Source: Thalia democratica
Taxonomy: Eukaryota
Assembly (NCBI GenBank): GCA_965202585.1
Contig: OZ241832.1
Span: forward strand, 42,036,001 to 42,100,000
DNA length: 64,000 bases
Reading direction: 5' to 3'
In this document: in pieces, positions 5,170 to 63,650 of the stretch
Position numbering within the stretch: position 1 is the stretch's first letter
How the letters are laid out: each line of letters begins with the position of its first letter
Notes under the pieces: generated by a model
What the model was told of the DNA's origin: nothing
The model's input: only the letters and a program-made list of their open reading frames with translations
Database searches by the model: none
Translations under genes and position numbers: made by a program

Positions 5170-5288
5170 GTCCTGGACAAGACGTTAAAAAGTATCCAAG
5201 TGGTGTATGACTCAATAACCGAAAGATTTTTCGTGCACCAGGTCCTACGACTAAATATTTTTAATGTTTTTTGTCGTTCAATAAACAA
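5170..5288 (+). repeat. ~120-nt structured dispersed repeat (SINE-like, unidentified), full-length copy
   Basis: GTCCTGGACAAGACGTTAA...GTGGTGTATGACTCAATAACCGAAAG...TCGTGCACCAGGTCCTA...GTCGTTCAATAAACAA. Other copies at 14778-14863(-), 18683-18796(-), 18968-19049(-), 22061-22167(+), 51722-51830(+), 62117-62224(-), 62546-62662(+). Confidence 0.8.
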
Positions 5289-8200
5289 TAATATTGTTAA
5301 AACTAAAATAAATTTAAAATTAAATACTAAGATAAGATTTGAAAGATATAAAAAACATTAAATAATATCGATTCCTTCAAGATATAGCTAATTTTCTTAA
5401 ATTTTGAAAATAAGTTCATTACTATTATTTAAAAGTCTTACAAAAGGAATTTTTTAGTTAAAAAGTGTTCTTCTATAGTTGCCTTCATTTATTTATTTCT
5501 TATTTAAAAAATTGTTAGAATTCCACCAGAAAAAAATATTTGAGTTATGTTATCTAAAAACTAAGTCTTTAGTCTAAAGAAATACAGGTTTTTTAATTTA
5601 AATAAAAACTGACTCATAGTTCCTGCTTAAAGTATTTATACAAAAGCCAATATTATTTTTTGAAAAACATTTTATATACATCCCCCTACGGCTTCAATCT
5701 ACATTTAGTAGTTTATCTTATAGTACAAGCAATTAAAAAAAACTAGGGTTGATTATATACAGCTTAATCTTAATTATAAACTTTTAGTTATCATTATTAA
5801 ATCCTAAATTTTTAATCTTAATTAAATTACCTTAATCTTAAATAAATCTTTAAACACTTTTATTACAGCAAAAAAAATATTTTGAAACTAAGTTTAGCAA
5901 TAAAAACTATAAAAAATTTATAATAAAAGATTTTTATTAGTATTTGTTTTTAGTTTCAAACCATAGACAAATCGTTGTTAAAATTGATTATATAACTGCT
6001 TATTTTTAACTTCAAATTGTAAATTAATATTATTGAACACTTTTAAGATAGCGGAAAAGTATATTGAAACTAAATTTAATATTTAAACAGAAAAAAAAAG
6101 TAAAAGTTAAAAGCATATTGCTTGTCTTTCTTTCAATTTAAATTATAGATACATTGTTCTTAAAATTTTTAGTTTTAAGATATGTCAATGAAGTATTAAT
6201 CTTACAACGTTAAATATCAGAGAGTTTTCAGAGCCGTTTATATCCTGATTAAACATCATCAGGCCACACGATTATTTTTCTTGCAAATGTAGAACTAAAA
6301 AAACCTTGTTATATATTATATTCACTTAGTTAAATTTTGTTTGTACTTTGTAATGGTTTACTTTGTTGTTTAATAAATCAAAAAATAGCTAAATTAGACT
6401 TTTAGACTGTTAAGCAGAGTTGCCACTGCCAGAATGTTTATGTTGCGAAAAATTTCAGTTTAAGTTTATACTGTTATTAAAGGTTATGCTAATATCTTAG
6501 ATGTAAGTTGAATTTTCAGTGTTTATTAGACTGAACCTAAGTAATATAGTTAAATTTTTTGTTATCACCTAAAATAATTGACACAAACAAACGGTGTACA
6601 GCAAATATAATAAATAGTACTTTTGTAAATTACAGGATAGCCATATGATCTGGAAAGTTAAAATTTGTATGAAAAAAAATTACGGATTTTAATTTATTAA
6701 AAAATTGATAATAAGTATTAGAAAATAGTTTAATCTTGAACACTTTTCTTCAGAAAATTATTAAAAATCATAGAACTTTTTATTGTTTTTTATAGATCTA
6801 ACAATATTCAACAACTATTGTCACTGATTGAAGATTTTTAAAAACCTTATTTAGAAAAACATCTGTATGTAAATGCTCAATTTTTTTAAAATTGCTTTTC
6901 TAATAATTTTACAAAATGCAAAGTTACTATTTATGTTAAGTCTAATTCGCTTCCTACTTGTAAAAGCATGATACATTAATTTAGAGTTTTAGACAATCAG
7001 TATTAAATAGTATTGTTATATTTTCAAAAACTCTTAAAATTGGCTATTAAACTCAAAGCTCAGTTTTGACCATAATAGTTACTTGTATTTGCCAAGTCAG
7101 CAAAAAAAAATTTTTTTGTTGTTATTTTTCATTTTAATTATTAAAACTCTAATTTTTCATTATGTTTTTTTTATTTTTGGGTAAGGTTGGTTAGGGATAA
7201 AAGTATAAAACAAAAATTAAAAATTGCTTTAAAAACTTTTGCTGACCAAGTAAAAATGCAAATCAGACTGAGCTTTAGGTTTACTTTTCTTTTGAATTAA
7301 ACGTTGTAAGATCGAAACCTAATTGATATTCGTTAAAACTTTTTAATTGAAGTATTTTAATAACGATGTTTATAGTTTTATAGTTAAATACATACAAACA
7401 GTGTGCTTTTATGTCTTTATATTTACTTTTTGGTTTTAATGTTAAACTGTTTTCAATACACTTTTATTCTATCTGTAAAGTGTCTAATAATATTTACACG
7501 TAGTTTTAACTAATATGTTATATAATCGACCTTGACTTCTATTTTTGAAAAGTTTTGTTTTGGTACTGGTTTTAACTAAAAAATTTTTACGTAAGTCACT
7601 CATTCAAATTTTTTTATAAGTTAATTTTATTTACCGCGTTATTAAAATAAGCTTGCTAAAAACTGATAAGATTATAGTGTAAATTTAGTTATATACAACG
7701 ATTTTTAAATGTCTAGCTAAAATTAGTTACTTACGTCATAAAGAGTTTTAGGTAGAAATCTGTTTAAAAGGTTTAAATTTGAGTAAATTTATACTTTGCT
7801 GATTTGAAATCATTTTAAAGACATTATTGTTAAAATAAAAACATTTGAGAATTTAAGATAATAAAAATTTTAGTTGGAACAAAATTAAAAAATTTATTAC
7901 AAAAAACGACAATAATCGTACTAAAAACACGTTATTTATAAAATTTTAAATTATATATATAGTTTTCACATAAATCTCGTTTTATTTATTAAAAAAAGTA
8001 ACACGTACTATGAGATTTAAAGCATTAGTTTAAACATAATTAGTTATACTATCATGAGAAGCTAATTTCAGAATGTGAGAGTCTACTGACAGTAAAGTAT
8101 TTAGTAAATTAAAAAGTTTGTGCTGCAACATATTTTTTGAATTGTGTTGGCATAGTGTTTGCTAGACAACAATAAACTGTTGCTATCATAAACAACAGCT

Positions 8201-12149: not shown

Positions 12150-14670
12150 ATGTCTGTCCCTAAAGAACACAAAAGGTACTCTTTTGATGGAGACGTTGTA
12201 CATATTGAACTTACAGAAGATGGTTATATGCCACCAGAAACAGCAAGGTACTACATTAAGACTAGGACGGCTACACAAGATCAATCAGTAGTTGGGGGGT
12301 ACTGTGGAATTCGAGATTTTGATGCATACATTTCTCCTACTGTAAGTTGTTGTATGATTACTGCTTAATAGTTTAAGAGTTTTTAAATCTTGAAGTGTAT
12401 CTAAATAAAAAATTTTAAGAATGTGAGTATTTAATTAATTTTAAATACGAATTCTTTATACAAACGTTTTAGAAATAATTTCGTGTAATTAAAATTACTC
12501 TGTTTGTTGAAGCCAATAGTAATATTATATTTTAATATTTTTTTAATGATAACAAAAGAAATATGAAATAAAAACTTAATAAGTCAGAATAGTCTTTAAT
12601 GAACAACCTAAATTTTATGTGATATGTTATACAAAATATTTAATAATCTTCTTAAAAGTAATATAAACTATTTCACTTTAAGTTTTAATTATTTCAATGA
12701 CAATCTTTTATATTTAAAACAAAAACTCCCTTTTAATAAAAATGTATATTTTGTAAAACTTATTTTTTATCAAACTTATTAAAGTTTAAATACTTTTTTT
12801 CGTAAGCAAAATATTTAAATGTTTTAAGTAATTTAAAGACATTCCATTAAAATATTTTATGAAGATCATTATATTTATGATTAACTTAAAAAATACCCTA
12901 GTTAATTTTTTAGTGCAGTGTTCAATGTAGCAAAAGTTTAATTATAAATGTAGTATATGGTTAGGTTAAGCCAAGTATAAAAAGTACTGTTAATTAAAAA
13001 AAACAAATCAGAGTAAAGACCAAATTGGTTTTAAAAAAGGTGGTTTAAGGAGTTAGGGGGTCCACCTTGTTTTTTAATTTGTTTAAAAAGTAACAACTCG
13101 GCTCTCAGACGCTATTGACCACTTAACAAAATTAAATGTAAATACTTGAATTTTTTTAGATTAAAGTTAGTCAGTACAATAGTTAGCTAATGAAGGTGTT
13201 AATCAAAGTAACAAAAAGGCTAATTAACTAAAAAACTATTTTCTATGATTTTCAAACAATTTTCTTCAAATCTTTACATTTAGTCATTGTTTTTTTTAAA
13301 TGAATAAAATTAAATCTTATAAATAAAGTTTTAAATTTTGAATAAAAAATAATTTTTTTTGTTTAAAACCCAGCTAATACTCTCGATCTTGATCTAAATC
13401 TTTATTTATATCAATGCTTTGAAATTTTTAACTTAATATTTCTTTTCAACTTAAAATTTAGCCTAAAACTTCGAGGTTTATAGATCGAAAAATAAGGAGA
13501 TATATACTAGCTGATTTTAAAGTTACCAAAAAATGAATATAAATAAATTGTGCTTTATACGCTTGTATCAGAAAGTCTTTCAAAAATACCTATATCTTTA
13601 TAATTTAATACTTTTAATTACTTTAAAAGGTAAATTATTGTTCACGTTTAAAATTTATATATAAAAGCTAATATCGTTTTGCAAAATAAAAACGTTTTTC
13701 CTTCATCACCTTAGTTGTACGAGTAGATTGCTTTCAATTTAGTTTAGACATCAAACAAAATCAATCAAAACAAAAAAATCAAATTTTCAACGAAAAAAAA
13801 TTAAATTAAACTTGAATTATTTCTTTAGCCAACATAATTAAAAAAAAAGTTTCCTTACAAGTAGTTAAAACTTTAATTTTATTTTAGAAATACAAGGCAT
13901 ACCGAAACAATTTGCCAAATAGAAATGGTGCTCCCTACGACTATGTTCCATACATGAAAAGACGTCACGAAATTCCTTGTGGTCGCCCAAGTAATGGTGG
14001 ACAAAATGCTGCTCCGGTTTCTAATGATCAACACACAAATGAAGAACAACAAAGAAACAGTTACGAATCTAGAAAAAGCTCTATCAAAAACCCTTATCCA
14101 GTGGAAGAGCCTAGGTATAGTAACGCTTCTAATCGAAATTCTACTGTTGAGCGTGATAGTGTTGAAAAACCAAGAAACAGTTACGCAGCTGATCGCATGT
14201 CTGCAGCTGGTCAACTATCTGGCCAGGAAACAGGTAATTCACGCCCCTTAAGCATGAAAAGTTCGACAGTAGAAAATACAGAGCATTCACGTCCTGTAAG
14301 CATAAATAGATCGACTATAGAAAAATCAGAGCATCAAGTTGAAAGTCGAAAATCATCTGTTGACCAAAAGTTTGACGCAGAGAATAGTAAACGTGATTCA
14401 ACAGGAAGTCACCGTCATTCAACTGGAAGTAACCGTGATTCAACTGGTAGTAACCGTAATTCAACCGAAGGTAACCGTAATTCAACTGGTAGTAACCGTC
14501 ATTCGACTGAAGGTAACCGTAATTCAACTGAAGGTAACCGTAATTCAACTGAAGGTAACCGTAATTCAACTGATGGTAACCGTAATTCAACTGGTAGTAA
14601 CCGTAATTCAACTGGTAGTAACCGTAATTCAGCTGGCGGTAATCGTGTTTCAACTGAAAGTAATAACTAA
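12150..14670 (+). CDS. Two-exon gene, 324-aa protein of unknown function with a C-terminal 7-aa tandem repeat
   Basis: Exon 1 12150-12341 (MSVPKEH...YISPT, donor gtaagt, phase 0) and exon 2 13888-14670 (acceptor ttttag, KYKAYRNN...STESNN*) join in frame. Both are less AT-rich than the flanks. No family recognised. Confidence 0.8.
14398..14667 (+). repeat. Coding minisatellite, 21-bp unit x ~13 (STGSNRN/STEGNRN)
   Basis: Units such as TCAACTGGTAGTAACCGTAAT and TCAACTGAAGGTAACCGTAAT read directly. Confidence 0.95.
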
Positions 14671-15651
14671 AATGAACAGATTATAAATTTATGTTTGAAA
14701 AAGGTATCTCAGCATCATCAAACGATGAGTAATAATGATTTTTATTGTCATAATAAATCTTAATAACTCAATACTGTTTGTTTATTGATAGAAAAAAAAT
14801 AGCGCTCAAAAATTTTGGTTGAAAGACCTGGTATACGTAAAAACTATTCGGTTATTGAGTCGAATTTAACCAGTGAATTTAGATTTAGTTGTAAACTTGT
14901 ATCAGGTATTTATTTATATAAGAATAAATAAATAAAAAGAATCTAACGATATTTAAGAGTTTACAAAGCTTGTAATGATTTTTAAATTGTTTAAGCTAAA
15001 GTAAGATGTTGTCAAAAATATAAAGTACTTGTATAATATGCAGGTACTATACATTTTTGACAACATCTTAATTTGGTTTTATTGATTACTGTATTTACGA
15101 CTAAGTTAGTTTATTTAAAAATACTTATACAGTGTACAAGTATTTTCAAATAAATAAATTTAGTTCTAGCTTATTAAAGATAATTTTTAAAATTTAAATT
15201 AAATGATACAGTGTGATAGTAAAATAAAAATCAATTATTATCAAAATAATGTTTTTTACAAAATCACTCCACTTTATCAAAAAGTTTCCTTTGTAGTGTA
15301 AATTTCATTCAGTGTAAGTATATTCGATTTATTGTTCAATACTGGTTTGAAATTCATCTAGTTTTTTTTCAGTTATATATTAGTTTGATGTATAAAAGCT
15401 ACCTTCATTTTTTATTATATTTACTATAAATGTAAAAAGAACGCTTATTATATAATGGCGACGCGTGGTCTTTTGTTAGGGGGTGCTGCGGATTTAAAAA
15501 GATCCCCTAGTCTGAAACATTTAGATAAAACTCATAAAGGTTTAAAAAAATGGCAAAGTTTTAAGCAAAAAATCTATAGTATATTATTTTATTTAATTCA
15601 TCGTAATTCAAATGTAGAAACAGAACTTTAATTAGCTAGATATATCTATAC

Positions 15652-15994
15652 CAGGGGTCGGCAAGCTGCGGCCCGCGGGCCAAATGCGGCCTTCAAAGCC
15701 AAAATCTGCGGCCCGCGAGTAACTATTATGGCTGAAAACACACTTTTTCCAAACATTCAAAAAAATAGTTTTGCAATAAAAACTAACAGTTAGGCTTTTA
15801 ATTTAACATCTACTCTTAACTAGTGCCAAATTACTACTTGTTTTGTAATATTTTGGTTTATAATTGTATTTATCTACTACTTACTATTTTTAAATAATTG
15901 CGGCCCTGGAAAACTTTTTTCTAAAAAAGTGCGGCCCGCGAGCAATTTTTTTGGAAAAATTGGCCCGCGAGTTACAAAAGGTTGCCGACCTCTG
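15652..15994. mobile_element. hAT (Charlie-like) MITE
   Basis: TIRs CAGGGGTCGGCAA / TTGCCGACCTCTG; repeated GCGGCCCGCG subterminal motifs; degenerate 8-bp flanks atctatac / tcttatac. Confidence 0.75.
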
Positions 15995-17333: not shown

Positions 17334-18161
17334 GGGAACGGGTCAGAAAAGCACGGGTGACATTTTAGCACATAGTGAAACTTTAGCACGGACTGACACT
17401 TTAGCACGGTGTGACAATTTAGCTCGATGTGACACTTTAGCACAGAGTGATACAAAGCACAGAGTGTCACTTTAGCACGGCGTCACTTTAGCACGGAGTG
17501 ACATTTTAGCACAAAATTTATTTTGCACTTTTTATTCTTTGCTTAAATCACATTAGGTACTGTATTGTTTAAAAATCTAAAAACCAACTATGCAACATGT
17601 AAACTAAAAGTTAACAAGCTTTATATGAGTTACAAGTTTAAGCTTTAATTAAACTAAAACAAAAGTAAATTTAAAAACTTAATTAACTTGTTTTACTATT
17701 TAATTTTAGATGTAAAAATTTTAATACTTTAAAGTTTTCGACATAAAACTATTTTAATAAAGTTAGCAATAAATACAAGCTCTAGGATTGTTAAAACTTT
17801 TCTTAAATGCTTTAACTAATTTTAATAAGGCTAAACTTTAAGCATAATTTTTAAATAAAAAGTGATATATTTTTTGATTAAAAACCTTCTTATTTCATTT
17901 TAAGCCCATAGTATAAACTTTATTTATAAATTTTTAAGACAATATTTTTAAAAGTGTTAGAACTAACTTTCACAATTACTTGTTTGTTAAGTTAATTATT
18001 TTAGATAATTAAACATTATTTATCTGAACATTTTAAAATATTTAAAACTATTAGGTGCTAAAATGTCACTCCGTGCTAAAGTGTCACTCGGTGCTAAAGT
18101 GACACCGTGCTAAAGTGTCACCTTGTGCTTAAGTGACGCTGTGCTTTTCTGACACCTACCC
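17334..18161. mobile_element. Foldback-type element with subrepeat TIRs and 8-bp TSD
   Basis: GGGAACGGGTCAGAAAAGCAC...(TGACACTTTAGCACGG)n is inverted against (GTGCTAAAGTGTCAC)n...GTGCTTTTCTGACACCTACCC. Flanks aaattcga / aaagtcga match 7/8. Confidence 0.8.
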
Positions 18162-18169
18162 AAAGTCGA

Positions 18170-18480: not shown

Positions 18481-20029
18481 TTATTTGCCTATTTTTTCCT
18501 TAGTTTTTAAGTATTTGTATACGAAGTCTTTTAGCCAAGCATTTAAAAACTTTATAGATTTTGTAGAAAAAGTTTTTAAGTTTTTGAGTAATTTTTAAAA
18601 TAGATTTTGCCATAGTTTTATTTTTTTAGTATTATTGTTTCAAATCATGCCTCGAACTTATACAGAACTTTTTAGATATAGATTATTAAACGATAAAAAA
18701 AGAAGCTAAAAATATTTGCTCCTACGACCTGGTGCACAAAAAACCTTTCGGTTATCCAGTTGCACTCCACGGATACCATAATGTCTTGTCCAGGACATTT
18801 ACCAAGTTACTAGCTTAAATAATTAAAGAGAAGATAGGTTTTTAATGTTTATACTTTATTTATTTATTGCTTTGTTTTCCCCTCCTATAAGGGACCTATG
18901 ATAGTCTCCTACTTTGACTGGTCTTATCTTAAACGTTGTTTTGAATTTCTTAAATCACTAAAAAATTTTGTTTATTAAACGATAAAAAAACGCTCAAAAC
19001 GTTTGGTCTAAGGACGAAAAAAACTTTTGGTTATCGAGTTGTACACCACATGGTTTCATATTTTCTTATGAGCAAATAAAAATTAAATTATAAACTTTTA
19101 AACTGTAAAAAAAAAACAATCAATGAACTGTAAGAAAATAAGCTAAGTTGTGTATTTTAAGGTTTAGGCTTAGACTGTATTTTCATTTTTATGTTATTAG
19201 ACAGGTTTTAGAGTTCATTATGCTTAAAACTTTTTTAAACCTAAACCTTAGAAAATAAAAACATAAGTAGAAAAAACTTTTAGAACTAAAAAAAAACTTT
19301 AACTTAATTGATAAAACGAGATAAACAGTAGTAATAGCAAACATGAAAATGATTGAAAGATGTGTCACAAGTTCTTTAAAGAAGTTAAAGTTGGAATAAG
19401 CTGAAATACTTTTACATTGTACATTGTCAGTATTTAATGCTAAAATGTTACAATTTAGTGTATAATCTCATAAGTTTTTAAGTAAAGCTCAAGTAGTTCT
19501 AATTAAATTGAAAGTTTATTTCGTTTTATTATAAGTTTTATATTTCACGATTGTTTAAATACTAAATCTTATTTACAAAAATTTGTTATATAATTAAAAA
19601 TAATATATCTTTTAACAAACAAATAAGCATTATTTTTAGTTATTTAAGAAAGTATTTAAAAAAAACATAATATTTATCTACCAAATAATAATATATATAA
19701 GTTATTAGTATATTAGTCATAAATTGTTTTAGTTTTTAACAAGAAAAATTAAAGTGCTTTTTTATATTATTAAACTTTATGTGAAAAGTTGAAAATAAGT
19801 CATTTAACGATTCAAAGTATCTTCTTACATTAATAGAACAACGTTAAAGAAAGTAATTTGTTTTTTTTAGTACATTAAGTATAATAAAAAGTATTAAGAC
19901 TTTTTTTTTCACTTTAAAATTTTAGACAAAACTTGAAATAGTTAAATTTACGATCAGTTATAAATGTTACTTTACTAATTTAGTTGCTTATTTAACTTAT
20001 TTGCTTATATACCCAAGTCAGTTTAAAAT

Positions 20030-21180
20030 TTAACGATCTTTTATTATCGACTTACAAAAAACATTGGGTATATTATATAAAACCAGACACTTCTTAAATG
20101 AACAAGCATTATATTTGATCTTTAATTCTTTGCTTATGAGCAATGTTAGATATGGCTTGTTGTGCTGGGGAAGAGCAAATAAAAAATGTATAAATGAAAT
20201 TAATGTTCTCATAAACAGAGCACTTAGATGCATACATTATAAGAAATATGATGACAGTGTAAGAGAATTAAAATCTCAGAAAAAAATATTAAATGTTGAG
20301 AGTCTGTATTTATATGAATTAGGTCTTTTTATGTTTAAGTTTAACAACAATTTGTTACCAGATAACTTAAAAATTACTATAAAAGTGTAAAAAATGTACA
20401 TAATTATCATACCAGGTCTTCAGAAACAAATTTTTTCCTACCTAGATTCAACAGCAAAATAGGTCATAAATCACTATCCTTCCAAGGTAGTAAGTTGTGG
20501 ACTAAGTTACCATTAAGTTTAAAAAGTATAAGTCATTTTGGAAAGTTCCAGCATAAACTTAAAAGTTATCTTATCTTTTAAATAGTAATTCTTAAGGTCA
20601 TTAGTGATCATTCCTACTCCCTATTTACTTTGTTTAAGGAGTTAATAGTACTTGTCATTTAATATCCAAACTTTTATTAATTTTTTATATTTCAGTTTTT
20701 TTTTTGTCCGAAAGTTGATTTGTTTGGTCACAGTAACATTGGTTTAGTCTGGATTTTAGCATTTTCTATCTAACTATTTCTAAGACTGTCGTTAAAGATT
20801 ACTATTTAATAATTCATTTAATATCCAATATTTTGTTTATTTTTTTGAATTTTTTTGTTGGAAAGTAGATTTGTTTGGTTGCATTAACATTGGTTTAGTT
20901 GAGATTTTAGCATTTTCTGTCCAATTATTTTTAAGACTATTCTTTAAGATTACTTTTTTGAATTAAGTTCAGAATACTTACAAACTTTTTTTTTTTAAAT
21001 CTTTTTTCGGCTTACAAACTTTATATACTTTATTATTATATTTCTTTTTTTATTGCATGAAAATGTTAAAAGAATAGTTATAGATGTTTACATTTTAGCA
21101 GAAAATAAAGTATTTTAAAAGCAAGCTGAGATAACTGTTTCAAGCAAATTTATGTTAAAGATAAATCTCTTTTTGAGCAA
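20030..21180 (+). mobile_element. CR1/L2-group LINE 3' fragment (RT C-terminal tail plus 3'UTR)
   Basis: ORF 20064-20390 (LIFNSLLMSNVRYGLLCWG...LNVESLYLYELGLFMFK), followed by HNYHTR and SLSFQGSKLW remnants typical of CR1 ORF2 ends. The 3'UTR holds a ~155-bp tandem duplication (about 20655-20957). Confidence 0.75.
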
Positions 21181-22370
21181 AGCAAAATTATTCTTTTTTA
21201 TGTTTACAAATGTTGTTTTCTTTCTATTATTTCAGTTAAGACTTAGACAAGTTTTTCAAAGAGAAAAGAGTTTTTTTTTTTGATTGATTTAGTGGAAAGA
21301 AATTTGTTGTTGTTAATATCATTGTTGTTAAAATTATTATTGTTTTTTTTTTACGTAATACGTATCTTCATATTTTTATTTATAAAAGTTAATTTCAGTT
21401 GTTGTAAAAATCACTTCTTTAAAATTCTAAAAAAAATCTTACAATAGTTTATGTAGCTATTCAAATGTGAAATATTTTTATTTTTCAACTTAAATCATCC
21501 AAAAAAAACCTTTTTAGCACAAAATACTTAATTAAAATGATATATTTATTCTATACTTTTTATCTAGTTAAATTTTTTTTTTATGGATACAGCTTTATTT
21601 TACTTTGTTTGAATATTGCAGTTTTATGTTATTTTTATTTTTTTTTTAATGTTATAGTTATATTTTACTGTTACTTATTTTTTGATAAGTTAAAATAAGT
21701 TGGTAGTAGAGTCAAAATTCTTAAACACACATAAAAAAAAGGAAATAACTTAACAATATATATATATTTTTTCTCTTTTTAAATCATATAAAAGGGTAAT
21801 TTATTTGCAAAATTCTGGATTAATTTTCAAATTGAAACTTCAGATAAAAACTTAACCTTTTAACGTAATTTATGTGTATATAATGTTAGATATATGTGTG
21901 TGTAAAAATTTTTTAATTTTTTTTTGGAATTTTTTTATTTTTTATTTTAATATTTAATGTTGTAAAGTTTTATAGTGTCACTTTTCATAGAGCTTTTCGT
22001 TTTAGAGTTTAATTTTTTCTTTTTTTTCATTTTTAGCTCATTATAATTTTGATTAAGTTTGGGTATGCAACTCGATGACCGAGAGGTCTTTTTGCTATCC
22101 AGGTCATTGAACCAAAACATTTTTGAGCAAAAATTTTTTTTTTTTTTTTGCTTTTTGTTCAATAAACTATACTTTCTTTTTTTGTTGCTCAATTTACTTC
22201 TTAGCTTATATATCGTCTTTAATTAGTTTGCGTTGAGTTTTGAGAGTTAGTATTTTAAATGCTTTTTTTTATGCTCAGTGAGCCATTAAAAACTGGTGCA
22301 TAATTGCAGAAATAGTGTACCTATTTGACAAGGCACCCCCTTGACACTAACTATAGATAGATAGATTGTT

Positions 22371-24033: not shown

Positions 24034-24522
24034 GTATATGTACTGCCAAAGCAATTACCTGGAGTTTTAAACAAATTTTACACAAAAACCTTGAATTATT
24101 TTAGATTAGACAGTGAGTAACTATTATATTTAGAAAAATTAGAATTCTATTTCCATTAAAATTCATATAAGGTAGCATTATGATATCTTTTTAGCAATTT
24201 AATTGTGTTAAAAAACTTTTTAGCCTTTAGTTTATATTTCAACTAACCTTAATTAAAAGACTTTTACTAACAAAAACCTAGAAAAAACTTCTAAAAAACA
24301 AGTCATCACCATGATATAAGTTTAAGAGAAAACTAAATTGTGTAAAAATTTTTTAAAGATTTTAAACAGAGCTAGGCTAATTTATAGTGACTCAGGCTAG
24401 ATTATTTTTGCCTAAATGAGTTATAACCCTGTTAAAACTTTAAACTTTTAAAAGTTGTTTTATGTAGTTTCTTTTTTTAATTTTGTCTAACTGGCATAAT
24501 ATAAACTAAGATAGTTATAACT

Positions 24523-25941
24523 ATGTTAATCAACAAAAAATTAAGCAGATATTTAAAATTAAAAATGAACAATGATGACTGTTTTTTGAAACCTTTTCTA
24601 AAACCAATTTCGTTAAAATTAAAGACTCAGTCTGCTTTTACAAGAAAAGAAAACGGGAAAAAAAGGGACAATTCAGTTGAGAACAAAAAGTTAGCAACTA
24701 TAAAAAAATCAAGGTTTTCAAATGGGCCTGACATAAAAGAATCAGTTCTTTATGAGTTACCTGCTGAAGAAAATACTTATGAAAAGAAAGTTGAAAGAGC
24801 CAAAGCTCAAGCTCAAAGAATAGTTGAAAGATTGAGAAAAGAGGGAAAGCTTAAAGTTCCACTACCTTCATTACAAAGTCCAAGTTCTTCCTTATTAAAT
24901 CAAGTATATGTTATGCGTCAAAAAGAAACTAGTGGTATATATATAGCAAAAATAGATATAAATAATCTTCCTCTTGATTTAAGAACTGTTTTAACATCAT
25001 CAGACACAACTAATAAAGTTGAGAAGCAGTTTGTTGCTAAAATAAGTATTAAGGGAAGCTATATAGAAAACTTTGAATTAAAAAAATTAAATCCTTTTAG
25101 AAACCAGTTACATTTAGAAATTCAAGCTACAAATAAAGATTCTGTTGATGGTGCATCAGAATATATCAAGAGTTTTGTTCAAAATTATGGTACAAAGAAA
25201 GTTGTTGTACCAACTGCACAACCTGCTCAAGTAAGTCCAATAATACCTCACATAAATTGCTTTAGTCAACCATCATTACCTACTGGTAATTATTTTCAAG
25301 ATAAAGTTTTTATAAACATTGAACCAGTTACTGGATTTAATATTAAACAAGAAATACAAGGAGTTAACTTTTCAAATTTCAAATATTTATCTTCAAATGG
25401 TTCTAAAGTTTTTTTGAGAGGTCATGGTTCTGGTTTTATTGAGCCAACTTCAGGCAGGGAAGCTTTTGAAGCTATGCATGTTTATATTAGCCACCCAACT
25501 CAATTAGTTGTAAATCAAACAAAACAACTTGTTCAGGATTTGCTTGCAAGTGTGAAACAAAAGGCATTGAGTTTTTCAGAATCCTTAAATTTCTGCGGCA
25601 CAAATACAAACAAGTATGTTCCACTAGATGTTAGAGCTTATGTTCAAAAAGTTCCTGCCCCAGTTCCAACCCCATCTACAGGAAGTGTTCATTCTGATCA
25701 AATTTTAAATAAACCAAAAAGAAAATTTTCTGAAAAAGCTACTAGTTCATATAATAATGTAGTAGGTTATACACACACAAATATAATAAAAAAGAAAGTT
25801 TTTAGTGAAACAAAAGATTTAAATGCTTCTTCAAGTAAAAGAAAGAAGTTTACAGAAGTACTACCTATCAAAGAGGATGAGTTTTCTAAGAAAGTAATTA
25901 GTAATGGACAACCATTCTGGATGACAAACTTTGAAAACTGA
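24523..25941 (+). CDS. KHDC4: KH-domain RNA-binding protein, KHDC4/BLOM7 (KIAA0907) homolog, single exon; alternative start ATG at 24565
   Basis: 472-aa ORF. DKVFINIEPVTGFNIKQEI...SKVFLRGHGSGFIEPTSGREAFEAMHVYISHP matches the KHDC4 second KH signature ([31 protein letters not shown]); IAKIDINNLPLDLRTVLT matches the first KH domain. Confidence 0.88.
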   Translation: MLINKKLSRYLKLKMNNDDCFLKPFLKPISLKLKTQSAFTRKENGKKRDNSVENKKLATIKKSRFSNGPDIKESVLYELPAEENTYEKKVERAKAQAQRIVERLRKEGKLKVPLPSLQSPSSSLLNQVYVMRQKETSGIYIAKIDINNLPLDLRTVLTSSDTTNKVEKQFVAKISIKGSYIENFELKKLNPFRNQLHLEIQATNKDSVDGASEYIKSFVQNYGTKKVVVPTAQPAQVSPIIPHINCFSQPSLPTGNYFQDKVFINIEPVTGFNIKQEIQGVNFSNFKYLSSNGSKVFLRGHGSGFIEPTSGREAFEAMHVYISHPTQLVVNQTKQLVQDLLASVKQKALSFSESLNFCGTNTNKYVPLDVRAYVQKVPAPVPTPSTGSVHSDQILNKPKRKFSEKATSSYNNVVGYTHTNIIKKKVFSETKDLNASSSKRKKFTEVLPIKEDEFSKKVISNGQPFWMTNFEN

Positions 25942-26683
25942 ATTATTAGTTGTAAAGCTTTTACAGTAAACATATGCTTACTTTGAAAATTACTATTTGT
26001 TTTATTGAACTATAATGTAGTTTGATACAGTAATTATAAAATTTTTATGTGATTTGTGCAACTTCTTTAGCTTATGTACTAAATTGAAAATTTCACATGA
26101 ATAAGTGATAAAACATGTTAGAATTAATAAAATATAAGCAAATGTTCATTGCTAAAAATTTTAAAAAATTCTATAGCAAAGCAACAAATTTCTAATACAA
26201 ACATAATTAGATTTATATAGTTAATTAGAAAAGTTAATAGAAGCAGTTTTATAATAAAGTTAATTTTGCTCTATCATTTTGTAGAATCAGATTTTAAGTT
26301 AGGTTTAATTCTTTTGGTTTCAATTTTATATAATATTTTACTGTTTTAATCTTTGTAATTTAAGATCTTATGAATATAGATTGGTTAAGTTGATATGCTT
26401 TGTGGTTTAATTTTGTTAACTATATTGGTTTATAGTTCATTTTAATATCTAAAAAAATGTATGTTTTATACTTATCTTGATAAAATAGTTTGATCTATAA
26501 ATTTAAATATCTTTCAAAACTTTTTTTATTGACTTTTAAACATTGAAAAAAATTATGTCCCAAAGTTTATTGTTAATTTTGATAAATTGATTTTAGTAAA
26601 TATTCTAATTAAACTCCTTTTACTTTTAATCTTAACAATCAGGTATAAATCATGTAAAAAACTTATAAATAATATTAAAAAAC

Positions 26684-48400: not shown

Positions 48401-49446
48401 ATATTTAAGCATACTAGCCGAACTTTAAGCCTTTTTATGTCATTATGTTTGTTTTGTAACAATATTTTAGACATTTTAGCTATTATTGGCTTCTATGTAT
48501 TTTACACTATCTAAATGTAACAAAATTAATCGTTTTTGCTTCTGCAACGATAGACATTTTGGGGTAGAGTTTGTGGATCAAATCATTTATGTTTTAATGA
48601 TTTCAATCTGTTTAACTACTAATACTTTATTAACAAAATAATTATTAAAATAACGGCCATACTCTTTTAAACTATACGTAAATATGTTTAGAAGACCATA
48701 AAGTACATAGCTTCAAGCTTATACCTACCGACGCTACAACTTGAACGAAACCAATGATTTAAGTATTTGAACACTGCCACAAAAGTGAACTCACAATCAG
48801 TTGTTTTATATACACAGCAAAACTAACTTTTGTTTTTAACCTCAAAAGTTTAAATAATGTATTAAAAACAAACTAGCATAAAACACAAGCTTTTCTAGTA
48901 ACAAAATAACACACAGAATGAATAAAGTAAAAGATCATATGATATACAAAATAAGTAAATAAAACATTATATGACATTGGTATAACAATTTTTATCAAAA
49001 TAAAATATATGAACTTAACACTTTGTATCAACCAGACAAAAATAGCACAATTTGATGATTATAATAAAAGCAACAACGGTTTAAATTTTAATATTTTTCT
49101 ATTTTTGTAAACATAACTTTTTTCCATGACTAAAGCTTTGTATACTCTCTTATTAATAGTAGTCTTTATAAAAAATAAAGTTTATTTTAGTAATGTTAAA
49201 AGGTTCTATGCAAAACTACTTTTAATTTGATACAGTTAAGGTATATAAGTATAAAAACAACAATTTGAAGCTTTGGGTAAACAAAAAACTTGACAAGTTA
49301 CGTTTAGAAACTTAAAAAAAGTGAACATTGTAGATTCTTTTCTGTATAATGTAACCAGTATTTAGTTCGGCCATGATCAACAAAGTTGAGATGTTTCGCT
49401 CTATTAATAATGAGCTTTACCATACGACCATCAACAACAGCATCCA

Positions 49447-49488
49447 ACCTACGACCGGTTTCGTCATTATTAGGACTCATCAGGCAGG
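49447..49488 (-). ncRNA. Type I hammerhead ribozyme (family A, copy 1)
   Basis: Minus strand reads CCUGC CUGAUGA GUC CUAAUAAU GAC GAAA CCGGUC|GUAGGU. Confidence 0.85.
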
Positions 49489-49596
49489 CATGAACAGTGG
49501 CCAGAAACCTCTGTTGCAATCTAGCAAAGCGGGATTAAGAACATATGCACTGAAGGCACCGTTTGTGGGTAAAAAATGAAAAGTTGTCACGACTAT

Positions 49597-49639
49597 ACCT
49601 GCCTGATGAGTCCTAATAATGACGAAACCGGTCGTAGGT
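49597..49639 (+). ncRNA. Type I hammerhead ribozyme (family A, copy 2)
   Basis: ACCUGC CUGAUGA GUC CUAAUAAU GAC GAAA CCGGUC|GUAGGU; predicted cleavage after 49633. Confidence 0.85.
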
Positions 49640-49928
49640 TGTCTCGCATGCTGTTGTTGATGGTCGTTTGGTGAAGTTCATTATCTATTATTGGTGGCGC
49701 GAAACATTTCAACTTTCTTGATGATGGCCGGAATAAACACTGGTTAAAACTGATCAAACGTGCCTGTACTATAATCTCTCAATAAGCTGACCATGTATTA
49801 GACGTTGGGTTGTGAACAATTTAACTGCGCCAATTTTTTTGATTTTACCCTCAAACAGTTGCTTCAGTGCATATGTATTTAAACCCTTTTGGTTAGATTG
49901 CAACAGAGGTTTCTGGCCATTGTTCATG

Positions 49929-49969
49929 CCTGCCTGATGAGTCCTAATAAGGACGAAACCGGTCGTAGG
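49929..49969 (+). ncRNA. Type I hammerhead ribozyme (family A, copy 3)
   Basis: CCUGC CUGAUGA GUCC UAAUAA GGAC GAAA CCGGUC|GUAGG; perfect stem II; predicted cleavage after 49964. Confidence 0.9.
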
Positions 49970-50326
49970 TTGTCTCGGATGCTGTTGTTGATGGTCGTAT
50001 GGTAATGTGCGTTATTTATTAATTCTGTAGAATATAAGAAACTTAAAAACAATTATAACTAAAAAGTTATACAAATTATGCTTTTAATACTTTATTTTTT
50101 GTATATGTGTGTCAATAACTGAGTTTCGATCTTGTAACGTTCAACTCAAAGAGCAAAAAAAAAAAAACCTTTGTAGATCTAAGAAAAATAAAAACAAGTC
50201 ATTGCGACTTATTAAGAAAAGTATTTGTTAATATTTACATTTTTTAAACATTGTAATAAAAAAATGTATACTAGTGTTAATGAAAAAATCAAACAAACTA
50301 AGCTTTAATTTATGTATACTTAGTTA

Positions 50327-50746: not shown

Positions 50747-51000
50747 AGTTAAGGTACATTTAGTTTTAGTTGTTATATGAGAGTTATTTTTAATTTAAAT
50801 ATCTTTAGGTATAACTACGACAGACTTTAACTTATAAAGCATTATAATGTATAACTTTTCATGTTTAAAAACAATAACGATTAAAGTGAATAAAAATTGT
50901 AGCTTTTTAAATGTCTTAAGAAAATATAAGTTTACATATTTGAAAGGTTCTCCCCACTAGAAGTAAAACATAAAGGTTTAATCAAAACATTTTGATCATC

Positions 51001-51100
51001 TCAGTATCTAAGGCTTGTGGTCTGATGATCGAAATTGTATGGTCAAACTTTTATTTGAACTTTGAGCTTGTCTCACGGCATAAGAAAGTTTAGGCTTAGA
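51001..51100 (+). repeat. Hammerhead family B downstream sequence without the ribozyme core
   Basis: TCAGT...GCTTGTGGTCTGATGATCGAA...GAGCTTGTCTCACGGCAT...GAAAGTTTAGGCTT matches 60196-60255 and the reverse complement of 60002-60099. Confidence 0.75.
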
Positions 51101-51924
51101 CTCTGTAGACTTTTCCCGACGTTTTTTTCGATCATTAGAAGTAAAATAAAGTACGAACTTGTAACAATAATTTAGTAAAATATAAACTTTTGTGGTACAA
51201 ACATGATTGTACGTACTACTTTCTAAGTAAAAATATTAAAATAGAATGACACTAAAAAACAGAACAAGTTTACATTTAGAAAATATTTTCAGTTTATGTT
51301 GTAAAAAGTACTTACGACAGTTTAATAAAACAACATAATAAAGATGTAAGCAACGTATTCACAGTGAAAGAAACAACACTTTTTTATTTCAAAATAAGGG
51401 CCAGCAAACTGCGAGATATCTCCTGCCTTTTAGTTAAAAAAAACTTATAAGAAATAACAAAAATCGTTTTTGATCATAAAAAATACTGCTAGACTCTCAG
51501 TTTTATTTGAGTGAACACTGAACAGTGGTACTGATTTAATTATTATTTTATCACAATTTTACTTTTAAACACTCTTTTTGTCAAAGTTTCCTTAGAATTA
51601 TATAAGTATTGGATAATATTTTTACTTAATATAATTAATCCATCAAAGTCTTTGTATAGCTAAACTGTTCTGTTTATTTTGAAAGACTCTCGATTCCTGT
51701 TAATAAGGTAACGACACAGAACCTGGAAAAGACATTAAACTGTAACCGTAGTGTACGACTCGATAACCTAAAGTCGTATACAACCAGCTCATTAGATTAA
51801 ACTTTTTGAGCGCTTTTTTGAAGTTTAATACACAGCAAACCATACGTGAGCTTCATTTTTTTAATACATAGTTTTATAAAAAAAAGAACTACTGCTAACT
51901 TAAATTTTCAGTTTCACATTATTA

Positions 51925-57500: not shown

Positions 57501-60500
57501 TAATCATGAATAAAATATTAAAAATGAAGGCATCTGTTCCTATTAAAATTAGTATTTTATCTAGCTTTTAAATCATTTTAAAAGTATTAATCGTAAATTC
57601 TTGCGAAATAAAGCAAATAAATGTAGGTCATTCCATAGTCAAATTTTAGAGTTTAGTTTCCTAATATCACTACTTTATTAAAATGTCTGTAATAAGTGGA
57701 TTTTGAAAGCCATTAAGACACTTTTTATCTAATTGTTTAGGTTAAAAGTAAAGCTAAACAAGAGGTACTTACATAATAATTAATAATAGTTGTAAAAACC
57801 TTCTAACTAAAGTATTAGTTCAACAAGATCTTTTAAACTTGCTCTTTACTAAAAAAATAGTTTTTAACTTTAAGATAAATTATAGAAAAAAATTATTACA
57901 ACATCAAGTAAATTATACATTTAAAAACTGTTTTAGTTTTCAACTTTTATTTTGTTTATGCTACACGTTGCAAATATTAAATAGTAAAATTAATGCTGTT
58001 TTCGGTGAAAATTTGTCTCATAAAAACATAAATGAGTGTTCTAGTTACACAGATTTTCAGAACATTAATTGTATACGCTCTATATACCAATAGGTTACTA
58101 CTTAAACATATAAGATATTTTATAAAATAATTATACTTTTGGCAACAGTCTCATGTTTCAAAAGTTTTCAATAGATTTATTTTTGGTAACTTTATGCCTA
58201 AAAAAGTTAATTGCACCTTTTATAAATCGTATAATAAGTTCACAGAATATATTTTGATAACAAAGAAACTTATGAGCTAAACTATATTAATTTCTTATAA
58301 ATTAAAATCAACAGTAAAAACTTTTATTAATCAAAACAACACAGGTTTGGTATGATTTTACTTATGCTTTTTCGGGAGAGTTTCAAATCTTAGAGCAAAA
58401 TCAAGATACATGGAAGTTAAATGATTTTGTAGCTATGTTTGACCCAGGTATACAAAAAACTTATGTTACTCGAAAAAATGCATCTTTTAAGGACCAACAG
58501 GTTAAATAAACTAGTATTTATTAACTTTAACACAACATCAATCTACAGCTAAACAAGCAAAAATATTATTTCAAATATGTATTGGCGCGGTAGTCTTCAA
58601 GTAATTTAAAATTATAATAGATAATTAAATTAATGTTAACAGGTCCGTCTTTACGAGCTTGCAATTAACTTGTGTCCATTAAAAAGTTTTGCTAACTACA
58701 TTTCTAGACTAAGTCCAACTTCAAATGTATTTTTCCAAGTTGTCCGTTCAAAACTTCACGGTAACGTATGGTACGGACCAGAATCATCAAGTATAAGCAA
58801 GATACAGCTTATGATGCCAAAAATATCTCGTGAGTTTAATCGGCAAACTGCAGCCAACTGGCTAAATCCGAACCACGGAGCAGCATTTTGTAACCCGCGA
58901 CATAGTACAATATGAGCAAATTTATGATTTTTTAAATTTAATTTTTTGTTATCTTAATTTAACTTTAAGTAAACATTATATATATTTTCTAACTAAACAT
59001 TTGTGTCTAAAGAAGTTTAATTTTTTTCTAACTATGCATTTCAAAATTATGGTGGCTCACAAAAATAATTTTAAGAAACGTGAAAAGACTTTTCTTGTTA
59101 ATCTAGCCCATGACTTGTAAAATGCTCCGAGTTTCTGAAAATATCAGTTATTTATATTTATTTAATTTTTATAACCAAAAAGACTTTTATTTTAGATTGT
59201 TTATGCTGAATATCTTTTAGGTATTTAAAAAATAAAAACTCTTTTGTTAATATCTAGTATAAATTAAATATACACAGTAAAATTTTAAAAATAGTCATAA
59301 AATAGAACGTAGTAAAAAATATGATTGCTGAGAACTAAAACATGTTTAACAAATGATATTGTGTTTTAAGTTTATGCAAAAAGCTGTAGAACCAAGCCAC
59401 CTATATAAAACATTTAAGTGTTAAAAAATGTTTTAATTCATTAAGCAACCAAGTTCGCTTTCAAATTTTTTTTTTAAATGTTGTGTATAAAGGCATGAAT
59501 CTTAAAAGCTTAAATACTTTGATTTTGTTAAAAAAAAGTCATTGATTAAAATTAGTTTGATTAAACAATAGTTTTAGTTTGTTATTAAGAATAATATTCG
59601 GATTAAAAAGTAAGAAAAGAGTATGTCAGAATTTTACAGGTTAGAGAATGTTGGTCAGTGTCAGAGTTTAAGATTACTAAACAATTTTTTTTGAAAAAAT
59701 AGCTTAACATGTGAAAAAAAGACATTTATTTACTTATAAAATATGAAAAAATGTAAGTTTTTAGAAAATTAGCAGTAATCTACTATGCGTATCGTTTTAA
59801 AATATAATAGTGTGGTTACAACACCCTAAGCTCGGGGGCAACGTACGGCCCACGGTGTAATTTTAAATTTGAAATAACTTATGCAAAACAAAACAAAAAA
59901 GCTTTTTTATAAAATATGTTTTTAAATGCTATAATACTCTTATTAACTTATATAAAATAAACGCTAATTAAATTTTCGTTTTATTGAAAGTTAGCAGAGC
60001 AGAAGCCTAGACTTTCGAATGCCGTGAGACAAGCTCAAGTTTAACATAAAGGTTGATCATACAAATTCGATCATCAGACCACAAGCTTTCGGTAGACTGG
60101 TATCATGCTTGCATGTATAAACCGTTTGTATATTGATGACTGCAAGTTTTTTGGTTGTAACTGACTGATGAGTCCTAATCAGGACGAAACCGGTCTCAGT
60201 CTACCGAAAGCTTGTAGTCTGATGATCGAGTTGGTATGATCAAACATTATGTTCATTCAAAGTTTTCTTCAAAAAAAACAAGCCAGATCAAATTTACGCG
60301 GTCCGCAAATTATTTTTAATAAGTATGACCCGCGAAAAAACTTTTCTGATTAACCTGGTTCGCCGACTAAAAAAGTTTCCTACCCCTACCTTAAAAAACT
60401 AAATATAAAATGTCTTTTTTTTGCTTTATTTTGGTTACTTAAAAGTTTTTGATGTACTTATATTTTACTATTTAAACGAAACAATATAGTATTTGAGATA

Positions 60501-60917: not shown

Positions 60918-61699
60918 GCACTTTTTTATTAATTAAAAGCTTCATTTTATTCAAAAATAAAAGTCTTTTCAAAAGAAATTACGAATAAACTGATAAATAA
61001 GAAATTACACTTAAAGTTGAAAAAAATACTGAAAAAAAAATCTTTGTAAAAGCTGTTAGTTGTGTTGCTTGAAACTTCAAAAATTTTCGAAGTAAAGTAG
61101 GATAGTATTAAATATCTATGTAGAGTTTTTGACAATTAAATAGTAAAACAATCAAATAGTCAAATTCATTTGACTCTTAAATTAATCAAATTCAATTTGT
61201 TTTAAAATTAATACTAATTTTACCTAACTATACACTGGTAAGCTTGAATTTTCGAAAATGTAACATTTTAGTTTTTGTTTATATTTTCATGCATGAATAC
61301 GTTTTTAAATGACATTATAGATAAGCAACATTGTTATGTGCAGTTTGCTAGTTTATCATACTTGAAAAGGTCGCAATTTTTTGCCACCGAAACCTGGTTG
61401 TAAATAAATATATAATTTGCACATCTTTATTTAAGTTTTAACTTCAAAAAACTCTACTACTAATAGCGGTAGTAACTAGTAAGTACTGAATGATGTTTGC
61501 TAGACACATTTAAACATATGACTTAGATGTGTTTAGGCTTTATTAAGAGTATTTAAAAAAATTAAAAAAAGAAGTTTGCAACCCAAAAAACTAATTTCAA
61601 CCCCAAAATTTAGATATTTTTTAAATTTTTCGACTTAAATAGTAATAAAGTCACTAGACATGTCTTAGATTTATAATAAGCTTATACTTAAAGACATAC

Positions 61700-63650
61700 A
61701 TTTAAAGAAATTTCAACTGCTTTTGATATATCATGACATCATGATCATAAAAAATGAGCAACTTTTGTCTGTAGAATGGTAATTTTTTTCTAATATAAAA
61801 AGCAATTTTTCTGCTGTTTTTACTTTTAGCTTCTTTGATTTTGAAAGTCAAATATGTGGAGTCAGTAAACCAGAAAGCTTTTAATAATGTATTGTCATTC
61901 CAATTGCATGTTGATACAGATATAAAATACATTCTAAATTATGAAAAGTTAGCGCCCAGTACAAATCAAGCAGATCTCTTTTATTAAATTTTAAAAGAAA
62001 ATACCAAGTTAATAATCTTGCAACTTATCACGTACATAGGTTTAATAAACTTCGGGTATTCTAACTCATCTATTTTGCAAAGCCTTCTGTTTATTCGAAG
62101 GCTTATAGTTATAACTTATTAAGCGACAAGAGAAAAACGCTCAATATATTTTGTCCTAGGACCTGGGTACGAAAAAACCTTTCGGTTATCGAGTCGTACA
62201 CCACGGATACATTTTGTCCAGGACTGTATAAATGAAACAAATCTAAGCAACCCGCATGTGGAAGTCGTCAAAGTACTGCTTGACTCTGAGTTTCTAGTCA
62301 CTGAACATACTTAAGTACAATCTTGCTTTACTTACAAGGTAACATAACAATTTTACACTTTGTTGTGGTCAGCTATTAACAAGACCTTCTCAAAATATTT
62401 CCTAAGCTGTATGGAGATCTCAGTAATAAGTAATGGACACTTTGGATGACTATGTAGTACATAATCCACATATTTAACGTGTTAAAGCCAGTTTCTGAGT
62501 TGTGTTGTAAAGTTCTTAACAAGATGTGTATCTATGCGTCCATGTGTCCTGGACAAGACGTTAAAAAATATCCGTGGTGTATGACTCGATAACCGAAAGG
62601 TTCTTCGTGCACCAGGTCCTAGGACCAAATTTTTTGAGCGTTTTTTTATATGTCGTTCAATATCATGCCGCCAAAGTTTTTGATCACAAACAGGGAGAGA
62701 ATATGGATTTGGAACATTTTGTTTGTTTAATCAACCATGAGTTACTCAGCTCAACTTATTAACTAATGAAAAACTAGACGGACTCCAAACGAATAAATTA
62801 GAATCTGAAAGGTACCATGCTGGATTTGGAAAGCGAGCAGCTATGTTAAAGTTTAGGAACCAATGCTTCGCATCAAAAGGGATAAGAAATGACTGTGCAT
62901 TACTTATACCTGATTCTTATTAAACTAAGCATGGAAAAAGTTTTAATAAAATTCTTAAATTTCTGAATGATTTGGAGCAAAGGTGGGTAGCAGAACAGAA
63001 AATATAAAAGAAAGAAAAGGGATCAATACGTGCAGAAGCGTCTCAAGCTGTGTAAAATATTGGGTGGGCCTGTAGTAAGCGTGGAAGAGCTGCATTCTAT
63101 TTTATAATCTCATCCTGATTAAAATTAAGTTATTGTTCCTAATGAGTTAATTTAATTTAGAGAGTCAAACAAATCTGTTCTGTCATACAACCCAGAACTT
63201 TTTTAAGTAATTAGTAATACCGAAGAGGAAATATTTCTAAACTTATGTGCTCTTGTTTCAGAAAATGATGGTCGCTCTCTGTGTTCTTTACCAACAAACG
63301 CTGATGCATTATTTATTTTAGGGGCTTCTTCTCCTATATAGAAAAAATGAAAATGTTATGGTAGGGAATTGTTATGCCACGTTAATTGTGAAAGAGTCAT
63401 CAGAAACATAGTATATTGTTACTTAGGAAGGTAAAAATGATGATGAGACTTACAAGATGGACTACCTCATGAGAGTTCAAGCTGAAAAAAATTCGAAGTG
63501 GAAACACCCTTTAAACGTGATTTGATGAACTTGCATTTAGATTCTATTCTTGATTGTGAAATTTATGGGGAATGGAATGTTTCTAATGAAAGATCTATTA
63601 ATTTTTTACTGAGAAATCATATCCAAACAGAATCATCAGTAGAATAGATG
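61700..63650 (+). pseudogene. Heavily decayed DNA-transposase-like ORF (superfamily uncertain), interrupted by two copies of the 120-nt repeat
   Basis: Frame-broken peptides KLGYSNSSILQSL, NETNLSNPHVE, QDLLKIFPKLYGDL, GREYGFG, GLQTNKLESER, CKILGGPVVSVEELHSI continue across insertions at 62117-62224 and 62546-62662. Recognised by pattern only. Confidence 0.5.

Follow-up and report, generated by a model that had tools for sequence, protein, structure and literature searches.

The repeated unit is the 3′ end of a LINE

The window analysed here, a 64,000-nucleotide (nt) stretch of the Thalia democratica genome (contig OZ241832.1, positions 42,036,001 to 42,100,000), contains eight copies of a unit of about 120 nt, which the initial annotation had taken for an unidentified mobile structured RNA. 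We found that the whole unit, including its 5′ part (the head, which starts with GTCCTGGAC), is the terminus of the 3′ untranslated region (UTR) of a long interspersed nuclear element (LINE). It is almost certain that the copies are LINE 3′ ends together with short copies derived from them, which resemble short interspersed nuclear elements (SINEs). The earlier reading of the unit as SINE-like, retroposed and endowed with an RNA fold under selection is supported.

The window has a G+C content of 26% and is held by an assembly of 802 Mb. AGA and AGG encode conserved glycines of the mitochondrial COX1, which is the ascidian code and corresponds to a tunicate host. A profile search over 55 evenly spaced 10-kb stretches gave 27 matches (38 of the 55 stretches had none, and the reversed control gave 0), from which about 39,000 copies genome-wide, LINE ends included, were extrapolated. 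The summed contig depth of the unit in a probable DNA run was 4.0 million as compared to 60-135 for a single contig, a ratio that is of the same order and is not a copy number. The exact 32-nt head was matched 246 times and the reversed pattern never. The unit is therefore a short, non-coding, dispersed, high-copy element. Near-identical sequence is present in marine metatranscriptomes; in metagenome contigs, the core pattern was not found in other species, and the LINE relative from another species was a single fragment, 29% identical.

The copy at 22061, previously considered a partial one, is instead the 3′ end of a 2.1-kb, 5′-truncated LINE fragment at 20052-22170 (+), in which a broken C-terminal part of open reading frame (ORF) 2, from about 20052, is followed by a 3′ UTR of about 1.55 kb (89.6% identity over 2183 columns to the intact element of locus L191). 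Its terminal structured domain covers 22030-22170 (+; match 22061-22170) and ends with AATAAAC and a TAT-type repeat. All 40 scored relatives of this copy were 98-100% identical to it, and the DNA upstream of copies of this type gave a far-reaching match in 26 of 30 loci, often beyond the 1.5 kb fetched and extending for at least 1.65 kb in most of the 30. The full element, which we call LINE B, is 5.8 kb long and intact in loci L191 and L186, and consists of ORF1, ORF2 and the 3′ UTR of about 1.55 kb that terminates in hairpins. ORF1 matches the Pfam family Baculo_FP_2nd, and ORF2 (1124 aa) contains a PHD domain at its start, an endonuclease (E 1e-10) and a reverse transcriptase (RT; E 1e-34); the domain search gave no match to RNase H or to a restriction-like nuclease. 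The 30 LINE B loci have variable 5′ ends and TAT-type tails. On the basis of its ORF and domain layout, rather than of an RT tree, the parent resembles the CR1/L2-like LINEs; the RTs in the PDB are only distantly related to that of LINE B. Traits of the CR1/L2 lineage are present, namely variable 5′ truncation, a simple-repeat tail and no regular target-site duplication: in short copies, the repeat at the insertion site measured 3.48 nt vs. 3.40 nt in the null (n = 71), and at two empty sites a repeat of 4 nt was seen, along with a small number of additional bases.

A second LINE sharing the 3′ tail was found through copies that carry the head. With an unselected query, 4 of 30 loci (L123, L131, L138 and L140) shared DNA upstream of the first base of the unit, a G here called G1, and the longest upstream match among these four corresponds to the LINE B UTR. 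A query spanning the junction between head and upstream DNA gave 40 scored matches out of 966 candidates, from which 30 loci were fetched, picked for LINE-like upstream DNA. Every one of them has a LINE-like stretch before the unit, from 150 nt to over 1640 nt in length and in several cases reaching ORF2, and ends in a recognisable unit of subfamily A2 (28 loci) or in a decayed head-bearing unit (2 loci). Since all 30 continue upstream, we conclude that a sister element, LINE A2, ends in the complete unit, GTCCTGGAC head included, and therefore that the fold of the unit is a LINE 3′-UTR structure, of a type that the RTs of LINEs are known to recognise.

Clustering was carried out on 159 matches having a score of at least 45, both core and tail, and a distinct 3′ flank. 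The clusters obtained were A1 (39 copies), A1b (4), A2 (49), A3 (3), A4 (16), B (30) and C (4), with 14 others. Divergence ranged from 2% (B) to 15% (A4), values that are underestimates where a family was sampled from the best matches. Long and short A2 copies share one consensus and are of similar age (5.0% vs. 5.5%). C-type ends have identical hairpins and a GCTC-type 5′ part, and one of them (L070) shares upstream DNA with A2.

The head may have arisen within the LINE, or the LINE may have captured a short copy. No match to the head was obtained elsewhere in LINE B, and no donor was found within the 1.3 Mb examined. A tandem duplication of nt 25-48 as the source of the head was not supported (p 0.10-0.22), and its origin as the 5′ end of another element was rejected: the 12 rows in which the head seemed to stand alone were opposite-strand matches to its own palindrome (8) and decayed full copies (4).

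The fold is conserved and covaries between LINE lineages

The stem, internal loop and GNRA hairpin of the initial annotation were confirmed. Folding energies, compared to shuffled sequences, gave z values from -2.4 to -4.1 on the plus strand and of -1.25 on the minus strand. Covariation was analysed in a plain MAFFT alignment of 24 copies, hand-chosen to span the families. In this alignment 92% of the cells pair, as compared to 32-45% when the partners are slid, and changes on both sides are present in 9 of 25 pairs (23 cells; shuffled mean 8.7), a result obtained in 0 of 500 shuffles. The pairs concerned include the one singled out earlier, another three of the long stem and a single pair of the 3′ hairpin. 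At 22061, the GACC-GAGA-GGTC swap that had been presented as compensatory change does exist; the covariation lies mainly between LINE lineages and corresponds to few events rather than 23, because for the most part a single lineage difference (B vs. A and C) is counted repeatedly.

For the so-called stringent LINEs, PMC3747384 describes LINE and SINE 3′ ends that form stem-loops in which compensatory changes occur. The hairpins of the unit, together with the tail of AATAAAC and (TAT/AAT)n, likely serve as the signal recognised by the RT of the LINE. As for the tail itself, the AATAAACAA form reported at first holds for a part of the copies (AAT in 22 of 71); AATAAAC followed by TAT is commoner (TAT in 26 of 71).

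A terminal helix, P1, is predicted between nt 1-9 and nt 71-80 and is common to A1, A2, A3 and A4. In the consensuses of these four subfamilies G1 has a predicted pairing probability of 0.95-0.99; the value for A1b, whose consensus derives from 4 copies, is 0.56. C-type ends pair GCTC with GAGC in place of P1. A local hairpin, H2 (nt 70-81), is an alternative to P1 and shows no double changes. In the copy at 62546 (+), the predicted elements are P1 at 62546-62554/62616-62625, the long hairpin H1 at 62575-62614 with its GNRA loop at 62595-62598, and the 3′ hairpin H3 at 62634-62640/62654-62660.

Short copies begin at a single base

Among 98 head-bearing matches, 94 begin at G1 with unrelated flanks and the remaining 4 run on into the LINE 3′ UTR. 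Position 1 is a G in 91% of 87 independent short copies, and nt 1-10 are nearly invariant across the head-bearing subfamilies. In the unselected A2 sample, 24 of 28 copies agree with the LINE upstream DNA for no more than 4 nt before G1. The long form was never seen in A1 (0/37 and 0/30, the latter including 27 independent copies), as compared to 4/26 in A2 (p 2e-5). Because the truncation points of long A2 and B copies, which are of the ordinary kind, are scattered across kilobases, the end at G1 needs a cause of its own. In 4 of the 98 copies, words of the head recur immediately ahead of G1, vs. 20 of 5000 random cases; this suits a jump at the physical end of the RNA or template, and plain tandem duplication could also explain it. 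In contigs from RNA runs the unit is preceded by varied 5′ flanks, which is what read-through would produce.

The 5′ end of the parent LINE carries a spliced leader

A Ciona-type spliced leader (sequence from Table 1 of PMC1488885) was found just before the short 5′ UTR of the LINE in 17 of 30 loci (L232-L261, e.g. L186:3748-3762). A match was defined by at most 3 mismatches in 15 nt, for which chance gave 17 of 3000, and some of the loci are local duplicates. The leader is joined at three successive AGs of the LINE, occurs as two tandem relics in L248 and L251, and in L240, which is outside the 17, stands ahead of a different UTR. This arrangement points to LINE RNA, produced by read-through, that would have been repeatedly trans-spliced. 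Given that the leader is joined at successive AGs, the LINE seems to rely on transcripts begun outside it.

No spliced leader with 0-1 mismatch was present within 300 nt upstream of any of the 159 clustered copies. An origin of nt 1-22 of the unit from the leader was rejected, since the leader precedes no copy and the AG/GT boundary at nt 22 is missing from A2-A4. Other repeats that start with the spliced leader were observed at L101:3927-3990, L114:9108, L229:2892 and L134:2753; in L101 there are two head-to-head leaders, each followed by a hammerhead-like core.

Origin of the exact 5′ end

The RNA that gave rise to the short copies was likely trimmed to length from longer transcripts, because the start base is shared and no clear promoter is present; processing is favoured also because the LINE's own 5′ end carries a spliced leader. 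The reading that we prefer, with a probability of roughly 0.4, is that read-through RNA polymerase II (Pol II) RNA is trimmed or cut at the terminal helix and that this yields G1. The LINE itself or host genes would supply the templates, as Pol II transcripts that read through. In the head-bearing lineage, the helix formed by nt 1-9 and 71-80 would stop 5′-to-3′ decay or be cut at its base by a cellular nuclease, and a bound LINE protein might aid the stop or the cut. The LINE RT would bind the hairpins and prime at the tail repeats. A copy lying in any transcribed region could then remake the same RNA, so that a promoter of its own would not be needed. We propose, more tentatively, a promoter-free retroposon at both scales, in which the LINE would be recapped at each cycle by trans-splicing of read-through RNA, and a small number of changes in the 3′ UTR would have produced a fold able to fix its own 5′ end, as an exonuclease block or as a new ribozyme; this would have freed a SINE devoid of the usual head, which could be remade from any transcript of the host.

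A number of observations weigh against trimming or cutting at the helix. P1 does not show covariation (values as high as the observed ones were obtained in 59/500 and 47/500 shuffles), owing to the near invariance of the head, and a sequence signal fits equally well. Short copies without P1 also derive from LINE B and C, and among 30 B copies there are 4 whose end lies 14-23 nt ahead of GCTC. TT precedes G1 in 14 of 24 short A2 copies as compared to 16% by chance, which could be a target-site preference. The T-runs of at least 6 that 34 of the 39 A1 copies contain ahead of the tail may post-date insertion. The evidence from RNA consists of assembled contigs, which show neither starts nor abundance, and a rare long A1 source could have escaped among the exact-head sites, 30 of 246 of which were inspected. 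Moreover, A1 and A4 carry an A-box with one mismatch at +5 and a B-box-like word with one mismatch at about +33.

These two words suit the alternative, which we consider unlikely, that the head is a newly arisen internal RNA polymerase III (Pol III) promoter, with SINE transcripts starting at G1 and only those that read through the T-runs being copied. The purine start, the interruption of the first T-run in A1 and a weak likeness to tRNA-Val over nt 23-71 (z 1.9-3.0) also agree with it. However, A2 has no A-box at +5 and yet its short copies show the same spike at G1, and an A-box with one mismatch is frequent by chance (an estimated 1 in 4 over 45 nt). The B-box-like word lacks the consensus third T, sits in a covarying stem and is common to LINE C, and in those 34 A1 copies a Pol III transcript would meet T6 or longer before the tail. 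The tRNA-Val resemblance suggested by the initial annotation is weak: in a comparison with host tRNAs of the Ser, Lys and Val types it is colinear and begins at nt 23, not at nt 1, and its z value is 2.8 in one subfamily and drops to 0.7-1.4 in the older A4 and in the C and B LINE ends. For this reason an origin from tRNA-Val was rejected. Rfam gave no family for the unit across the window, nor at E ≤ 10 on one copy (including tRNA, signal recognition particle (SRP) RNA and 5S), and ARAGORN found no tRNA in the unit; a canonical SINE head (tRNA, 7SL or 5S) was accordingly discarded. An origin from U2, SRP RNA or a small nuclear RNA, suggested by a likeness, found no Rfam match either.

Less probable still is Pol II initiation at G1, directed by an initiator within the head or by a single master locus, or a few of them, with an outside promoter, which for A2 could be the LINE 3′ UTR. 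The near invariance of nt 1-10 in the head-bearing subfamilies would fit such a start, T-runs are no obstacle to Pol II, an AATAAA signal closes the unit, and TT often stands before G1 in short A2 copies as it does in the LINE. On the other hand, no upstream DNA is common to the 39 A1, 4 A1b and 3 A3 copies, nor to 27 further independent A1 copies; the same start is kept by four subfamilies; the head does not occur elsewhere in LINE B, and the LINE offers no internal promoter to inherit, because its own 5′ end is the spliced leader.

It is quite improbable that the fold of head-bearing units belongs to an as yet undescribed class of self-cleaving ribozymes, cutting 5′ of G1. G1 is the first pair of the terminal helix, and ribozymes resembling that of hepatitis delta virus (HDV) are alike in this respect. 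In an alternative fold, nt 13-21 can pair with nt 87-96, which gives an HDV-like strand order with a CAAA linker. Moreover, the R2 SIDEs are built as a ribozyme joined to a LINE 3′ end, according to PMC3414825. Nevertheless, the HDV-like descriptor, which is lax and was run without a positive control, gave 0 plus-strand matches in five head-bearing consensuses, and no Rfam ribozyme family matched at E ≤ 10, so that self-cleavage by a known ribozyme class is unsupported. In addition, the core is inherited from headless LINE ends, and long A2 copies persisted with the site uncut. An 11-nt word in common with the hatchet ribozyme, as given in the relevant part of PMC6101554, is missing from A2. 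Hammerhead, hatchet, twister and pistol were each rejected for want of an Rfam match (a lax pistol word matched, and on inspection had no pseudoknot partner), and a permuted hatchet or pistol was rejected because the word is absent from A2 and no model matched.

The least probable explanation is that there is no discrete RNA and that G1 is a truncation hot spot, a preferred point for the RT to stop or join when it copies long RNAs: long and short A2 copies are alike in sequence and age, B and C short copies end near the domain base and there is TT microhomology at short A2 junctions, but P1 would already be unwound once the RT gets to G1, the upstream U-rich UTR has more microhomology than G1, and A1 was amplified with the long form in 0 of 64 copies.

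The eight copies in the window

All eight copies were recovered by blastn and nhmmer. An exact GTCCTGGAC start is present in four of them, at 5170 (+), 18796 (-), 62224 (-) and 62546 (+). These are short copies that start at G1: 5170-5288 (+) belongs to A1b; 18678-18796 (-) is head-bearing; 62112-62224 (-) has an 8-nt deletion in the head, TATA on either side and 2 extra bases before G1; and 62546-62663 (+) belongs to A1, its empty site showing 13 extra bases (62532-62545) before G1. An older head-bearing copy with a decayed head (A4) lies at 51720-51834 (+; match 51722-51834), and an old decayed copy whose 5′ part is unrecognisable at 14778-14880 (-). The copy at 18968-19073 (-; match 18968-19055) is another LINE-type end, a short insertion of a related LINE of C type in which a GCTC-type 5′ part replaces the head and the hairpins are unchanged. 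The eighth copy is the LINE B terminus described above.

Two of the copies lie within a multicopy host repeat (113 first-look candidates), aligned to its relatives over 62020-62780 (+). The insertions are clean (62104-62226 and 62532-62662), and 5 of 5 aligned relatives lack both of them. The interrupted frame had been called a transposase pseudogene, a name that could not be kept: it had no Pfam match under E 0.04, and the nearest Atlas clusters were unnamed eukaryotic proteins, with recognition below threshold. The host repeat, considered over 62020-63650 (and also found in L263-L271), has a 278-aa frame.

A miniature inverted-repeat transposable element or the terminal repeat of a DNA transposon was rejected as the nature of the unit, which is polar, with a variable simple-repeat tail and no fixed target-site duplication. 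Circular or tandem replication was also rejected, since the 165-nt repeat in L019/L020 takes in flank. The last 50 nt or so, alone, are common to the partial matches L100:761-808 and 1171-1219 and L094:2698-2747, in which the 5′ part is different; these perhaps represent another family sharing the tail.

Other features of the window

Hammerhead ribozyme repeats, inverted and direct, are present at 49445-50021, 51005-51113 and 59987-60253 (Rfam E 0.003-0.99, below the gathering score); from their layout we take them to be Penelope-like. A KHDC4/BLOM7-like single-ORF gene with KH domains lies at 24505-25941 (+) and is covered by RNA contigs. The first exon of a kinase-like gene, whose continuation was seen in RNA contigs, is at 26641-26746 (+), directly after a pyrimidine tract and CAG, a possible trans-splice acceptor. 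Inverted-pair arrays of 16-18-nt repeats, which resemble the subterminal repeats of a non-autonomous DNA transposon, were observed at 938-1057, 2642-3280, 17356-18139, 34510-34569 and 36138-36616. A 21-nt coding tandem repeat at 14345-14705 (+) is contained in a 260-aa open frame with no Pfam match. Elsewhere in the genome, units of about 16 kb are repeated in a long array, and each of them has a tRNA-Lys-like fragment (G000:C6:22.7-24.1 Mb, L037-L063).

Relation to known elements and significance

The literature that we searched describes neither the element, nor a SINE made only of a LINE 3′ UTR, nor a leader-capped tunicate LINE; Repbase, Dfam, supplements and most subscription journals were outside this search, and the repeat libraries of genome papers may list the family. 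UnaL2 and UnaSINE of the eel are an example of a stringent LINE/SINE pair. With the pairs treated in the passages of PMC3747384 on this subject, the unit shares the 3′ end of a partner LINE, a compensatory stem-loop and a simple-repeat tail; unlike the SINEs described there, which have a Pol III head from tRNA, 7SL or 5S, it lies in the LINE 3′ UTR with all its parts, head included, and has internal T-runs. The unit is also like the bipartite non-autonomous LINEs (R2 SIDEs, RIME, NARTc and RTE/Vingi derivatives), which, as presented in the relevant parts of PMC5786205 and PMC3414825, are short, derived from a LINE throughout, probably transcribed by Pol II and exact at their 5′ end. The same sources describe the fusion of a LINE 5′ end (a promoter or an HDV-like ribozyme) to the 3′ end, whereas here the 5′ part is 3′ UTR. 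The list of ORF-less bipartite types in PMC5786205, in the part dealing with them, names only RTE, Ingi, Vingi and R2. Unlike these, the parent here is CR1/L2-like and no known ribozyme was found.

In flaviviruses and plant viruses, exoribonuclease-resistant RNAs are folded 3′-UTR domains that fix the 5′ end of a decay product. The working proposed for the unit would be analogous, with no match to these RNAs in sequence or in Rfam, and with a product that would be a retroposition template. In its order of ORF1 followed by PHD, endonuclease and RT, LINE B is like L2 subgroup 5 with a type IIB ORF1, as defined in the pertinent section of Metcalfe and Casane 2014 (PMC4120745); it differs from the subgroup as characterised there in that its ORF1 matches Baculo_FP_2nd rather than Tnp22, and its 5′ end is a spliced leader. 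A retroposed RNA that opens with the leader of its host, in some cases doubled, is also reported for retrogenes of dinoflagellates. The relics found here differ in being those of a chordate and in lying at three successive AGs of one LINE family.

Covarying stem-loops at the 3′ ends of LINEs are already known. Less ordinary is a successful SINE-like family that consists wholly of LINE 3′ UTR, whose start is exact and in which a Pol III head is not evident. Since both the long and the short form are preserved in A2, the family offers a direct and inexpensive test of how a SINE may be born when there is no small-RNA promoter. Should the fold cut itself or block decay, it would represent a novel functional RNA, of which thousands of variants exist in nature, and if the promoter-free reading is true, it would represent a route of SINE birth without Pol III. 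The leader of the parent LINE, judged from its sequence, suggests a chordate retrotransposon that sets its 5′ end via the trans-splicing of its host.

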